From NCBI GenBank assembly GCA_000002445.1, contig CP000069.1, forward strand, positions 768,001 through 832,000: a DNA stretch of 64,000 bases, written 5' to 3'. This DNA comes from Trypanosoma brucei. Lineage: Eukaryota. A model generated the notes under the pieces. It was not told the DNA's origin. It saw nothing but the letters and a program-made list of their open reading frames with translations, and ran no database searches. Shown in pieces: positions 37,537-43,333 of this stretch. The translations under genes were made by a program, and so were the position numbers. Each line of letters begins with the position of its first letter. Position 1 is the stretch's first letter.

Positions 37537-38031
37537 ATGTACCGCACTCTCACACCGTCATGCAAAAAATTCAGCGGGTTTTACACGACTTTCCCCCGTC
37601 GATGTAACACCACTATTTTGATTCCCTTCCGAATCTTCTCCATATTACTGTACCTCACGGCACTCATTTGCGTGGCTGGATCAAGTGATGATTTTGTATT
37701 GATTGAGTCTCGGGATAATGAGGTATCTGGCGGTGGTGATCGTGTGGACCTTCGCCGATCTGTAAATGTTTATTTAGTTGTTAGCTTCATGTTGCTTTTC
37801 GTCACCTGCTGGGGTATTTTTACGGGACGTACGCTGCGAAGTGGTACCGTGAACTTTATGCACTGCTGCTCCCACACAACAGCTGCAATAGCTTTGATAG
37901 TGATATGGTGTCTGAAGTTACATTTACATCGAATGTGGCATGTATTTTACGCCTTCGGTGCCATTCCTACCGCAATGGAAGTGTGTGCGCTGTGTGCGTC
38001 GTATTATCGTGGTTTGGATAGTTATTTGTGA
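37537..38031 (+). CDS. Hypothetical small membrane protein (weak)
   Basis: ATG ORF of 164 aa. It has three or four hydrophobic segments and sits on the same strand as its neighbours. It is cysteine-rich with no family support, so it could be spurious. Confidence 0.25.
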   Translation: MYRTLTPSCKKFSGFYTTFPRRCNTTILIPFRIFSILLYLTALICVAGSSDDFVLIESRDNEVSGGGDRVDLRRSVNVYLVVSFMLLFVTCWGIFTGRTLRSGTVNFMHCCSHTTAAIALIVIWCLKLHLHRMWHVFYAFGAIPTAMEVCALCASYYRGLDSYL

Positions 38032-38680
38032 AAATTTGGTTTTGTGCTTTATTGCTGCAGTTGTTGTTTTGGTTAGTGCCTTGTTCTTCGACATCCTTGT
38101 CTGTTTTACCCAATTATTTTTGATTGGCGTGTGAGTTTTACAATAGTTTGTTGCCAATTCAAATTGTGTTTCTCCCCCATTTTTTTGTACTCACGCATAT
38201 AAGCTAGGTAGATGATATTATAAATTTATCTTTCGTTGTGCAGTGTTAGACGCAGGTTTATATGGTGCATCTAGATATATGGAGACTAAAGATATCGTCC
38301 TGGTATCTATTTCTTTTTTTTGTGTGTGTGTGTTGCCTTGTTGAGGGGGAGTGGAAAAATATTATCGGAAAGTAAATAACGTCACTGCAGGAGACTTTCG
38401 AGTGAGGGAAGAGAGATGGGGATGAAGAGTGTCTTCACCTTTCCTCCTTCCTCCAGGAGTGTGTTATTTTGCATCCGGTTGTGTAAATTAGTGAAAAGGC
38501 TGCGTATTGGTTTCTAGTTCTTTTTTTAAATTCGCATTGTGTTCCGCTTCCCGTTACTGCGATCACTTGTGAGCGTTTGTTTTCGTTCCCCTCGAATTAA
38601 ATATCATAGGTAATTGCATATTCTCGTATAAAAGATAGGGGTTTATATTCCTTACCCTATTCAACTCTCCCTCTTATTGT

Positions 38681-38776
38681 GGCTCGCTGATGAATTAATT
38701 TTTCTGAGTGTTTTCTTAGAGTTCCGTAACGGGCATGATAAGCACACAAATTATGAACCCTTTAACTCTGAGAGCC
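38681..38776 (+). ncRNA. Candidate C/D-box snoRNA
   Basis: The 5' sequence GGCTCGC is followed by TGATGA (C box, 38688-38693), then CTGA at 38704. A TGATAA (C'-like) lies at 38736. A CTGA (D box, 38768-38771) is followed immediately by GAGCC, which pairs with the 5' GGCTC to make a 5 bp terminal stem. Length is about 96 nt, in an ORF-free intergenic region. Confidence 0.35.
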
Positions 38777-39573
38777 ACATCGATTACCCCTCCTTTTTTT
38801 TTCATATTACTGGTTGGATAATAAAACAAAATGTGACAACGAAACACAGAAATCGTGATCCCTATTGATACACGTTTTTCAGCTGCGGATTATCAAAACT
38901 GTGTGAGATGAAGTATAAAAATTATCTACTACATTTGCGTACGATGTTAACAACGAGCTGTGAGGAAATTGTTTCCACGGCGAGTTTTTTTTTCCAATTT
39001 ATTTGTGTATACTGCAAGTAACCTTCTGCTTTTTTATTCTCCTTCTCCTCTTATTATCTGTGTTTTAACACTTCTTTATCGCTATTTTGCGTCTACTTTG
39101 GTTTTTTTTCTTTTCCACACGCATGTTTGAATAAATAACACATTCACCAGACCCGAATTACAAGGAAGAAGAAAATTTGACATAACACACGTCGTCGATG
39201 AGGCAAAGATAACAACAACGACAAAAAAAAGGTAAAAACATGTGCGATAAAGTTGACAAGAGAACGCGCGTAGACCATCAAGAGCTGCGTTTAGCACTAA
39301 TTCCTGCAGTCGCTTTATTATTAAGTAACTGTGGTGCGAAGGGGAAACCCAAATGGTAAAAAGGGGAGGAAATGTTGATGAGAGGAACTTGTAAGTTTGA
39401 TTCTTTCCTGAGGTAGTGTGTATTACGAAAATTAACTTGTGAGAAAGCATTCAAATGTTGTTTTGAAGGTCGACAGCACCGATATTAAGTAAGTTGAATT
39501 GTGAGTGTTTATGTTCCACTTATTCAAATTCGGGCATTCACAAAGTGCTGATGAGATTAATAATGGGGTGCAC

Positions 39574-39635
39574 TTTCTTTTTTTCTTTTCCTTTTAATTT
39601 TCTTTCTCTCTCCTCTATTTCCTAAAAGGTTAGCT
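39574..39635 (+). promoter_or_regulatory. Polypyrimidine tract plus AG upstream of the deubiquitinase gene
   Basis: CTTTCTTTTTTTCTTTTCCTTTTAATTTTCTTTCTCTCTCCTCTATTTCCTAAAAGGTTAG lies about 70 nt upstream of the ATG at 39701. Confidence 0.45.
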
Positions 39636-39700
39636 GTAGGGAAAGAAATATTGTGCTTTTCTTTACCAGGTGAAAGTGTGTAGCCACCGCAGGCCTTGCC

Positions 39701-41743
39701 ATGTCGAAAACAATTTGCAAATGTTGTGTGGTGTGGAAACCCAGCGAGTTTTTAGAAGCCGCTGCCAGGCGTTGTATGAAACCTCAAGATGTAGCATCGG
39801 ATCAAAAAAAGCTGTTCTGTGCGATGCGCAGCGTTGCCGATGGAATTGGTTATGCAGGGAGTGCTGAAGCTGCTGCGGATTTAGGAAGCATCAAATCATG
39901 TGATAATGATCCGCAACTTTGGATGTGTCTTCGCTGTGGGTTATATTGCTGTGGAGTGCACCGAAAGTCGCATTATGACAACTCGAGAATGTCTGGTGTT
40001 GGCACAGACGATAAAATAAATGGGGGCCACCGTATCTTTTTTGCCGTGAAACCGAGATGGGGGACGGATGTGAACTCACCTGCCGTTGGTGCACCGTTGC
40101 CGACAGTTACGATAAACTTGTGTCAAGTCGAATCACCTGAGAGGCGTACCGTAACGATGAATAACTTGAAGGTTTCAAAGGTTTCATTTGAAAAGGTAGG
40201 GACGTATGGCATTATATCGTGTGTGGAATGCCATGAAGACCCGATCAAGTTGCCTGTGCGGAACAGCTTACCATGTTTAGGGGTTGACTTGATAACTCTT
40301 TGCGAAAATGTAGCGAAGGTGTTACACTGCGTCGAGAGAAACATTTCTTTGGCTCCTGATTACGACGAAGGCTCGTTCGGGGCTCCCCGTGCTCGCGGCG
40401 TACTGGATTCAGGAATTGCAACAGACACGAGGCGTCAAAACAGCAACTATGAAACGTATTCTTATGTGGAGACGAATAAGCAGGCCAACTCACGTGCAGC
40501 AACCTCTTCTAACAGTCGTTGCGTGAGAGCACGGGCGGGCACACTAGTGGAGGCTTGTATCTCCGGCTTTGAAAATCGGCGCAACACATGTTATTTCAAC
40601 TCCGTTCTCCAATGTATTCTTCAATGCAATACCTTTATTGATTTTATGATCCGTCAAAAATTCACCGGTTCACACACGTTGGTGCATCATATGTCCGAAA
40701 TGATAGGGTTTATGAAGAGCGGCCCGTGCGCAGGTGATAGACAAGGTATCGTGGATGGCCTTGCCCGTGCTTTGATGGGCAGTTTATCTGAAATTGTTCC
40801 AATGTTTGGTGACGGGGATCAACAGGACAGTCAGGAACTCTTCATTACGCTGATCAATGGTATCGCTGATGAGTTAGATAAGGGTAAAAGTGAAGAAGAA
40901 AAGAAAGGGAGTCAACGTGTCCCTTTCGAAGGTATGCTCTGTACTACAGTAACATGCAGAGGGTGTAAAAACCAAGTCAAACGGGATGAAGTGTTCATGG
41001 CGCTTTCAATACCCGTTACGAACAGCGTTGAAGATAGCCTTGAAAAACTTTTCGAAAGATCGACACTTAACGGGGATTCTCAGTACGCCTGTGAAGTGTG
41101 CTTTAACAAACTATCTCCTGCGGAGCAAACGAAGAAAAACAACGATATTCGTGCGGAGAACGAGGCACGGAAGCTCAGGAAGAAAGCAAATGCGGAAGCA
41201 AAGAGTCTCAACTGTCTCTACCAAGACGCAGACGTGGAAACATCAATCGGGAGATTTAATGGATCACTCGCGTTACACTTACTACGGTTCAAGTGCGACG
41301 ACCGTGGCGTATACAAAGTTCCTGGCGCAGTTTCTTTCCCAAAAAGACTGAACCTTAGTAAGTATATAGTGGGCAGTGCGGCAAGCGGATGTGGGGACAC
41401 GAAAATGCCGCAAACGATCGTCCAAACAAATGTGAACACACATCGTAGTGTTTCCCGACCCAGCAATTCGCTGGTACATGTTTCCGGTGGCGATGGCTGT
41501 ACGAGTAGCGTGGAGGAGAGTACTGACAACCGACGGAGTCAGTTGGACTTGGAGCTCGTCGGCATAATCTCGCATGTTGGTTCACTTCACGGTGGGCATT
41601 ATGTTGCTCATGTACGGAGCCATACCAAACCATCCATGTGGTTCTACTGCGACGATGAAGAAATTTATACTGTGGATGAATCAAGTGTGTTTGAACGCGA
41701 GCAGGGTGTATATATGCTCTTCTACGACCAGCTTTACCATTAA
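39701..41743 (+). CDS. Ubiquitin carboxyl-terminal hydrolase (USP/UBP family) with an N-terminal ZnF-UBP domain
   Basis: ATG ORF of 680 aa. It has a ZnF-UBP-like segment CLRCGLYCCGVHRKSHYDNS, the Cys box GFENRRNTCYFNSVLQCILQCNTF, and the His box GGHYVAHVRS...WFYCDDEEI...YMLFYD. Confidence 0.85.
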   Translation: MSKTICKCCVVWKPSEFLEAAARRCMKPQDVASDQKKLFCAMRSVADGIGYAGSAEAAADLGSIKSCDNDPQLWMCLRCGLYCCGVHRKSHYDNSRMSGVGTDDKINGGHRIFFAVKPRWGTDVNSPAVGAPLPTVTINLCQVESPERRTVTMNNLKVSKVSFEKVGTYGIISCVECHEDPIKLPVRNSLPCLGVDLITLCENVAKVLHCVERNISLAPDYDEGSFGAPRARGVLDSGIATDTRRQNSNYETYSYVETNKQANSRAATSSNSRCVRARAGTLVEACISGFENRRNTCYFNSVLQCILQCNTFIDFMIRQKFTGSHTLVHHMSEMIGFMKSGPCAGDRQGIVDGLARALMGSLSEIVPMFGDGDQQDSQELFITLINGIADELDKGKSEEEKKGSQRVPFEGMLCTTVTCRGCKNQVKRDEVFMALSIPVTNSVEDSLEKLFERSTLNGDSQYACEVCFNKLSPAEQTKKNNDIRAENEARKLRKKANAEAKSLNCLYQDADVETSIGRFNGSLALHLLRFKCDDRGVYKVPGAVSFPKRLNLSKYIVGSAASGCGDTKMPQTIVQTNVNTHRSVSRPSNSLVHVSGGDGCTSSVEESTDNRRSQLDLELVGIISHVGSLHGGHYVAHVRSHTKPSMWFYCDDEEIYTVDESSVFEREQGVYMLFYDQLYH

Positions 41744-43072: not shown

Positions 43073-43333
43073 ATGAGCGTCACAACAAAGCAGATGGTTA
43101 AGCCGACTGTTGTCGTGCACCGTTACTTAAAAGAGAGTCAACGTGTGTGTGTGTGGCTTGTGCACGAAACTAAGATGAAGATCGAGGGCGTTTTGTTGGG
43201 TTACGATGAGTTTATGAATGTCGTGTTGGGCGACGCGACGGAGGTGCATCTCAAAACCGGAGAGGTTGTTCAATTAGGGAAGATCCTTCTTCGCAGTGAT
43301 AATGTGGGTGTCATTCACCCTATTGGCATATAG
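43073..43333 (+). CDS. Small nuclear ribonucleoprotein SmE
   Basis: The 86 aa ORF is collinear with human Sm[28 protein letters not shown]...[14 protein letters not shown] aligns with [23 protein letters not shown]...LGRIMLKGDNITLL. Sm1 and Sm2 motifs are present. Confidence 0.85.

Follow-up and report, generated by a model that had tools for sequence, protein, structure and literature searches.

Gene Neighborhood of the Locus

Between the genes for TMEM107 and a UCH deubiquitinase in the window (the whole stretch of Trypanosoma brucei DNA that was analysed, 64 kb in length) lies a gap of 1669 bp, at positions 38032-39700, in which the sole mechanically called ORF is one of 122 aa on the minus strand. 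The plus strand of this gap holds a compact element with the box arrangement of a C/D snoRNA, which starts 647 nt beyond the TMEM107 stop codon and possibly falls within the TMEM107 3′ UTR or precursor. The parts of the element and its neighboring genes are listed in Table 1.

Table 1. Features of the snoRNA locus and of the neighboring genes, in window coordinates.
Feature	Position	Strand	Basis or remarks
TMEM107 (presumed Tb927.6.2680), upstream neighbor	37537..38031	+	Pfam TMEM107, E = 1e-32
Whole box C/D snoRNA gene, including terminal stem	38678..38779	+	Sequence; ~102 nt, predicted ends
Terminal stem, 5′ half, TGTGGCTC	38678..38685	+	Perfect 8-bp complement of 38772-38779
GGCTCGC	38681-38687	+	Sequence
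C box, UGAUGA	38688..38693	+	TGATGA invariant in 7/7 orthologous copies
C-D′ spacer, AUUAAUUUUU (nominal D′ guide)	38694..38703	+	10 nt, all A/U
D′ box, CUGA	38704..38707	+	Kept in all species but T. cruzi (GUAA)
Internal hairpin between D′ and C′, UCCG-UAA-CGGG	38723..38733	+	Hairpin at the equivalent place in all species
C′ box, UGAUAA (degenerate)	38736..38741	+	Sequence
D guide	38749..38766	+	Core GAACCCTTTAAC (38755-38766) plus extension (38749-38754)
D box, CUGA	38768..38771	+	Invariant across all orthologues
Terminal stem, 3′ half, GAGCCACA	38772..38779	+	Complement of 38678-38685
UCH deubiquitinase (Tb927.6.2690), downstream neighbor	39701..41743	+	Pfam UCH, E = 1.3e-39
LSM ORF	43073-43333		86 aa, 9,655 Da; corresponds to SmE, Tb927.6.2700

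The neighbors fix the position of the element in the genome. The NUDIX gene upstream of TMEM107 encodes a protein of 294 aa and 33,049 Da, and the published identifiers of this region are Tb927.6.2670 for TbNH4 (a NUDIX protein of 33.0 kDa), Tb927.6.2690 for a ubiquitin C-terminal hydrolase and Tb927.6.2700 for SmE (9,649 Da). The TMEM107 protein is identical both to XP_845389.1 of T. b. brucei TREU927 and to TEOVI_000065200 of T. equiperdum. Because the order and masses of the neighbors fit Tb927.6.2670, Tb927.6.2690 and Tb927.6.2700, and because TMEM107 is XP_845389.1, the locus belongs to chromosome 6 of the T. brucei group, and the candidate is located between the presumed Tb927.6.2680 and Tb927.6.2690.

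Exact look-ups of the UCH and NUDIX proteins of the window returned no match, because the gene models differ. Counted from the first ATG, the UCH ORF of the window has 680 aa, and the T. equiperdum annotation (L009:5287-6495) gives a product of 639 aa. Three Logan assemblies (ERR7929156, ERR7929157, and ERR7929161; contigs L001-L003) carry a 680-aa UCH that is 98% identical; these contigs start 31-71 nt upstream of the ATG, so that the candidate lies outside their coverage.

Downstream of the element, a polypyrimidine tract, CCCCTCCTTTTTTTTTC (38788-38806, plus strand), starts 9 nt past the 3′ half of the terminal stem, and further polypyrimidine tracts occur near 39020-39110 and 39570-39600. 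These tracts could be trans-splicing or polyadenylation signals; such signals would bear on the placement of the snoRNA, in the TMEM107 3′ UTR or in a separate processed segment.

Box Anatomy of the Element

The element carries the two boxes of a box C/D methylation-guide snoRNA, UGAUGA and CUGA, and a terminal stem of 8 bp that juxtaposes them. A stretch ending in AAATTATGAACCCTTTAACT directly precedes the D box, GAGCC (38772-38776) directly follows it, and GAACCCUUUAACUCUGA is present in the snoRNA sequence at the window locus. The base before UGAUGA is C (CUGAUGA), as against the purine of the consensus RUGAUGA. A first-pass annotation of this DNA, made from the letters alone, had proposed a C/D snoRNA here and had placed GGCTCGC, the C, D′, C′, and D boxes and GAGCC; we find each of them in the sequence at the place it gave. 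It had also proposed a terminal stem of 5 bp; the stem is present, but with a length of 8 bp (TGTGGCTC paired with GAGCCACA).

When a TGATGA, a CTGA 50-125 nt downstream of it and a flanking stem of 5 bp or more were required together, a scan of the 64 kb on both strands gave a single match, the arrangement at 38678-38779. The MFE fold of the element retains the terminal stem (z = -3.4), and none of 200 shuffles folds equally well. These results bear on the simplest rival explanation, namely that we are looking at chance box-like motifs in an A/T-rich 3′ UTR or spacer, or at a cis-regulatory UTR element, and that no snoRNA is made. CTGA and TGATGA are, after all, common short motifs, and no Rfam family is reached at threshold; against this, mononucleotide shuffles of the window give a mean of 0.16 such arrangements when a stem of at least 5 bp is asked for, and an 8-bp stem in 0 of 100. 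We return to this explanation below, after the target and the conservation of the element have been described.

Covariance models, which the first-pass annotation had put forward as a check, gave no Rfam match at the gathering score anywhere in the window; in a permissive search of the intergenic region the top two matches were both C/D families, each spanning 38678-38779 end to end. Of these two plant families, snoZ162 scored 21.4 bits (E = 0.62) and snoZ157 scored 20.2 bits (E = 1). Both lie far under the gathering score, and taken alone this sub-threshold evidence is weak. A SNORD33-like match at 37678-37742 on the plus strand (19.2 bits, E = 4.7), which has a TGATGA motif of its own, lies inside the TMEM107 coding sequence and for that reason is regarded as chance and not as a second snoRNA.

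The Guide and Its 18S rRNA Target

The guide lies directly upstream of the D box. Its core, a 12-mer with a single occurrence in the window, forms 12 contiguous Watson-Crick pairs with T. brucei SSU 718-729, and the extension adds 6 bp (2 of them G·U) with SSU 730-735, for a total of 18 bp; in a guide of this class one looks for 10 nt or more of antisense before the D box, with the target at position 5. The nucleotide at guide position 5, T38763, stands opposite A721. The decisive point is the published sequence of T. brucei SSU 718-735 (old numbering), G U U Am A A G G G U U C G U A G U U (PMC10662448 Supplementary Data 11). The first-pass annotation had named complementarity to rRNA or snRNA of the same species, in the D+5 register, as a check on its candidate, and the outcome is clear: the guide pairs with the 18S rRNA of its own species and A721 falls exactly at D+5.

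Shuffling puts these numbers in perspective. The duplex between guide and SSU has a predicted energy of -30.0 kcal/mol, compared with -11.5 ± 2.7 for 1000 shuffled guides (the best of which reached -21.6), and a run of 12 contiguous Watson-Crick pairs was attained by 0 of 2000 shuffled guides. When every 18-mer of the gap is considered, a 12-mer match directly before a CTGA box is found for the true guide alone. A sweep of the whole window for other combinations of a box with a 10-mer of rRNA complementarity gave only chance-level matches besides the snoRNA locus. A string search of the literature also finds the predicted target, GTTAAAGGGTTC, in the trypanosome or kinetoplastid 18S primers TrypR, S-755, and F720.

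As a proxy for complete kinetoplastid rRNA we used L088, a metagenome contig that contains a complete kinetoplastid SSU, 5.8S, and LSU unit by Rfam. Set against the full L088 rDNA, the D guide has one outstanding site, at SSU A641, with 18 bp (16 Watson-Crick and 2 G·U); the next-best site anywhere in this rDNA has 7 bp. The guides of other Trypanosoma species pair at the A641 site too, with 12-13 Watson-Crick pairs. The kinetoplastid-specific 18S 21-mer GTTAAAGGGTTCGTAGTTGAA is carried by at least 120 JGI/ENA metagenome contigs, of which L088 is one; kinetoplastid rDNA is therefore abundant in environmental assemblies.

Two sense identities of 12 nt with L088 SSU at ~647-665, 3′ of the target, were also seen, one at the 5′ end of the snoRNA (38675-38687, plus strand) and the other at 39492-39503 (plus strand). 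Both were judged to be chance because they are not kept in T. brucei 18S rRNA, which reads CUGUGGGCCACG, and because this region is hypervariable among kinetoplastids.

Methylation of A721 and the Probable Name TB6Cs2C1

The predicted target nucleotide is 2′-O-methylated in vivo. SSU_721 (693 in the new numbering) is listed as Am, at 88.4% in procyclic and 100% in bloodstream cells (PMC10662448 Supplementary Data 11); mass spectrometry of the same study gives the fragments UU(Am)AAG with RNase T1 and (Am)AAGGGU with RNase A, and RibOxi-seq is positive at this site in both stages (PMC10662448). The RiboMeth-seq score falls from 0.80 ± 0.02 to 0.72 ± 0.03 upon silencing of NOP1, with p = 0.0089 (PMC9283944 Table 2). 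This fall is small, which counts as a point against the account given here; it is at the same time indirect evidence for the predicted binding of a stable small RNA of about 70-120 nt by NOP1/fibrillarin, NOP56, NOP58, and SNU13. The guide predicted for SSU_721 in the literature is TB6Cs2C1 (PMC10662448; PMC9283944 Table 2). Methylation at the fifth nucleotide from the D box, which the first-pass annotation had predicted without naming the nucleotide, therefore has an experimental counterpart in Am721, a site already assigned to a C/D snoRNA with a chromosome 6 name.

In names of the form TBnCs the digit after TB is the chromosome, as in TB11Cs7C1 by Tb11.03.0310, TB10Cs5 by Tb10.6k15.1510, and TB9Cs1′H1 in Tb09.160.1270. 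The locus lies on chromosome 6 and encodes a guide for SSU Am721, as TB6Cs2C1 does, and we give it this name because it is a chromosome 6 C/D gene with a unique guide for A721. TB6Cs2C1 and the locus share the organism group, the chromosome, the unique target nucleotide, and the C/D class, and there is no known difference between them; the name itself, read as the first C/D snoRNA of the second chromosome 6 locus, is consistent with a solitary gene. The locus is thus almost certainly TB6Cs2C1, a name that follows from chromosome and target and not from a sequence match.

Conservation Across Trypanosomatids

A copy identical to the snoRNA of the window is present in T. equiperdum OVI (L009:4147-4248). 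Further afield, the synteny NUDIX-TMEM107-UCH-LSM is kept in T. cruzi, T. rangeli, T. grayi, T. conorhini, and T. theileri. The UCH proteins are only ~33-35% identical to those of these species and the rest of the intergenic DNA is unalignable; nonetheless, in the equivalent gap, blastn finds the guide together with the D box at 17/17 positions in T. rangeli and 16/17 in T. cruzi. In each syntenic species a TGATGA C box precedes the end of the D box by 88-90 nt. The guide core is invariant in six other Trypanosoma copies, one nucleotide before CTGA. A GTGT motif follows D′ in every species compared, and the aligned position of C′ reads TGATAT, TGACAT, TGAAAA, or TGACGG in the other species. 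The terminal stems of the other species, judged by eye, are 3-4 bp long and cannot be aligned.

The internal hairpin is formed by CUCC/GGAG elsewhere and by CCCC/GGGG in T. theileri, compared with UCCG/CGGG in the window; in the alignment of this hairpin 86% of the cells pair and two pairs have compensatory changes, but covariation among the seven sequences, if suggestive, is not significant (63/500 shuffles).

The conservation completes the case against the explanation by chance motifs. A guide that matches a known Nm site exactly and places it at D+5, and an island of conservation across a protein divergence of ~35% identity would, together with the box and stem statistics, all have to be coincidence; this explanation is already effectively refuted, and we give it next to no credence.

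Copy number differs between lineages. Just one copy is present in the T. brucei group, T. cruzi, T. rangeli, and T. conorhini, and T. grayi has two near-identical tandem copies 256 bp apart (L007:886-997 and L007:1142-1253). T. theileri has at least two copies (L130:5031-5138 and about 6032) with a run of N between them; the assembly is probably collapsed there, with a tandem duplication in this species too. Tandem repetition, which the first-pass annotation had raised as something to look for, is accordingly absent within the 64-kb window, where the gene is single-copy, and is seen in T. grayi, with T. theileri a probable second case.

The same data bear on a second rival explanation, that the locus is a silent or relic copy and that the true TB6Cs2C1 guide is encoded elsewhere on chromosome 6. 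In its favor one can say that the identity with TB6Cs2C1 comes from chromosome and target and not from sequence, and that our view of the genome is limited to 64 kb. A relic, however, would hardly have its boxes, stem, and guide all intact, nor an identical copy in T. equiperdum; moreover, five other Trypanosoma lineages keep the syntenic position, which points to purifying selection at exactly this locus, and T. brucei has few snoRNA loci, 50 in all. We consider a relic quite improbable, and an active gene the far better reading.

Outside the genus the picture is different. The adjacency of TMEM107 and UCH is kept in Leishmania martiniquensis, Phytomonas EM1, and Lotmaria passim, and no complement of the rRNA site was found within ±4 kb in any of the three. 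(No NUDIX gene was called upstream of TMEM107 in the corresponding contigs, L131, L132, and L133.) The TMEM107-UCH position of the snoRNA is thus a feature of the genus Trypanosoma, and those three genera must encode their guide for the corresponding SSU adenosine at another place.

The D′ Half

The second half of the RNA is less easily understood. The first-pass annotation had noted a D′/C′ pair, and the CUGA and UGAUAA sequences do exist, but the D′ spacer is without an identifiable target: against kinetoplastid rRNA the T. brucei spacer reaches at most 8 Watson-Crick pairs, with no convincing site, and on SSU 700-756 its pairing is worth -1.4 kcal/mol. In length and in A/U content the spacer seems unsuited to guiding, a second guide being in any case optional for this class, and the D′/C′ half in T. 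brucei appears to have a structural role only. The spacer and the degenerate C′ box, like the C before UGAUGA and the absence of an Rfam match at the gathering score, are points against the assignment of the element to the class.

The rest of the genus differs. The C-D′ spacers of the other Trypanosoma species (L004:4598-4612, L006:5203-5216, L007:904-917, L008:59-72, and L130:5049-5062) are 14-15 nt long (GAAACCGAUGAUUUU and variants) and share an invariant AACCGAU core, and a second element, AAUCGAC, is conserved upstream of their D guide. In the T. brucei lineage, A/U-rich sequence stands in place of both elements. The D′ guides of all species, compared with kinetoplastid SSU, 5.8S, and LSU, have no consistent site, and neither AACCGAU nor AAUCGAC matches the available kinetoplastid rDNA. 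Within the RNA, the two spacers pair weakly with each other (-1.4 to -5.4 kcal/mol).

These elements leave some room for a third rival explanation, in which the RNA is a real, expressed C/D RNA whose main role is not the methylation of A721: it would be a chaperone or processing factor of pre-18S rRNA, or would act through a second interaction. The 18-bp duplex does exceed the length needed for methylation, the single-copy LM32Cs1C1 of Leishmania has chaperone-like effects by way of a second rRNA interaction domain, and the other Trypanosoma species keep AACCGAU and AAUCGAC with no identified target for either. Yet A721 lies exactly at D+5 and is methylated at 88-100%, there is no sign of a second target in T. 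brucei, with its 10-nt A/U spacer and a pairing energy of only -1.4 kcal/mol, and a chaperone role would in any case supplement methylation guidance and not substitute for it. We regard it as improbable that such a role is the main one, if marginally less so than that the locus is a relic; guidance of methylation at A721 is the reading we retain.

Comparison With Known snoRNAs

The adenosine in question is a familiar one. A single site comprises Am619 of yeast (guided by snR47), Am668 of man (U36A/B), Am621 of Arabidopsis (AtU36), and Am612 of Dictyostelium (CD25) (PMC8817022 Table 1). Few 18S methylations are shared by yeast and human, and this is one of them. The guides snR47, U36/SNORD36, AtU36, and CD25 all have the trypanosome target as their own, the same universally conserved adenosine in the context GUU-A-AA, in the 18S helix 3′ of the 530-loop region. 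Counting from the Um of GGU*AAUUCC, the target A lies 41 nt further on in each rRNA compared: U680 to A721 in T. brucei, U600 to A641 in L088, and U578 to A619 in yeast, whose sequence served for numbering only. The positions of yeast Um578 and Am619 are themselves confirmed in the literature (PMC8817022). Trypanosome Am721 is the equivalent of yeast 18S-Am619 and human 18S-Am668.

The guides are alike in function. The chicken homologue of U36/snR47 reads the 18S site with its 3′ (D) guide, and so does the trypanosome RNA. In sequence they have nothing detectable in common: neither SNORD36 nor snR47 gives an Rfam match to the trypanosome RNA even at E <= 10. The guide sequence differs from that of snR47/U36 because kinetoplastid rRNA reads AAAGGGUUC at the site and not AAAAAGCUC, as the others do. 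The second guide of snR47/U36, which is directed to the LSU (25S-A2220 in yeast, 28S-A3703 in man), is not found in the trypanosome RNA; the D′ spacers of all species, compared with L088 LSU, gave at most 8 Watson-Crick pairs, at inconsistent sites. The genomic mode differs as well, the trypanosome gene being intergenic in a polycistron and vertebrate U36 intronic. The trypanosome RNA is thus a functional counterpart of snR47/U36 and not a demonstrable member of that family.

Within T. brucei, the genomic setting is unexceptional. The first-pass annotation had reasoned that an intergenic region of a Pol II unit is where a trypanosomatid snoRNA gene would be expected; the gene does belong to a trypanosome, it is solitary, and it lies in a Pol II intergenic region, a class of gene documented in this species. 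Solitary snoRNA genes in intergenic regions or 3′ UTRs make up 14 of 50 T. brucei loci (Michaeli et al., 2012; PMC3273796), with TB11Cs7C1 in a 3′ UTR and TB1Cs2H1 between tubulin genes as examples (PMC3273796). The gene described here does not differ in kind from these: it too stands alone, away from the repeated clusters, and is encoded on the sense strand within a Pol II unit.

Discussion

Taken together, the evidence makes us highly confident that the locus is a solitary, single-copy box C/D snoRNA gene in the interval between TMEM107 and Tb927.6.2690 on chromosome 6, almost certainly TB6Cs2C1. By analogy with known trypanosomatid snoRNA biology, the gene would be transcribed by Pol II as part of a polycistronic precursor, from which an RNA of ~100 nt would be excised. 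The 8-bp terminal stem, visible in the sequence, brings the C and D boxes together, and the resulting k-turn would presumably serve as the platform for a core of SNU13, NOP56/NOP58, and NOP1 (fibrillarin). The 18 nt upstream of the D box pair with pre-18S rRNA at 718-735 (old numbering), and according to published data NOP1 methylates the 2′-OH opposite guide position 5, that of A721 (new A693), which is modified at ~88-100%.

The Am721 site, its near-stoichiometric methylation, and the name of its guide are already published for T. brucei, and their recovery here is not a discovery; the identification of the T. brucei snoRNA adds no new biology. What it does say is that the first-pass annotation picked out a genuine solitary C/D snoRNA from the letters alone, that those of its proposed checks which were run spoke in its favor, and that its D+5 complementarity test was passed exactly.

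The comparison across species makes two small additions. The first is that the TMEM107-UCH position of this gene is constant throughout the genus Trypanosoma but is not shared by Leishmania, Phytomonas, or Lotmaria. The second is that the D′ half has diverged in the T. brucei lineage. It is conceivable, although we think it rather unlikely, that the ancestor of this RNA had a second guide or an element for accessory pairing, whose function was lost in the African trypanosomes, which would amount to a lineage-specific difference in ribosome modification; if this is true, the RNA would have had as its other target either a segment of rRNA or of another RNA that is specific to trypanosomes, or an unmapped Nm site.
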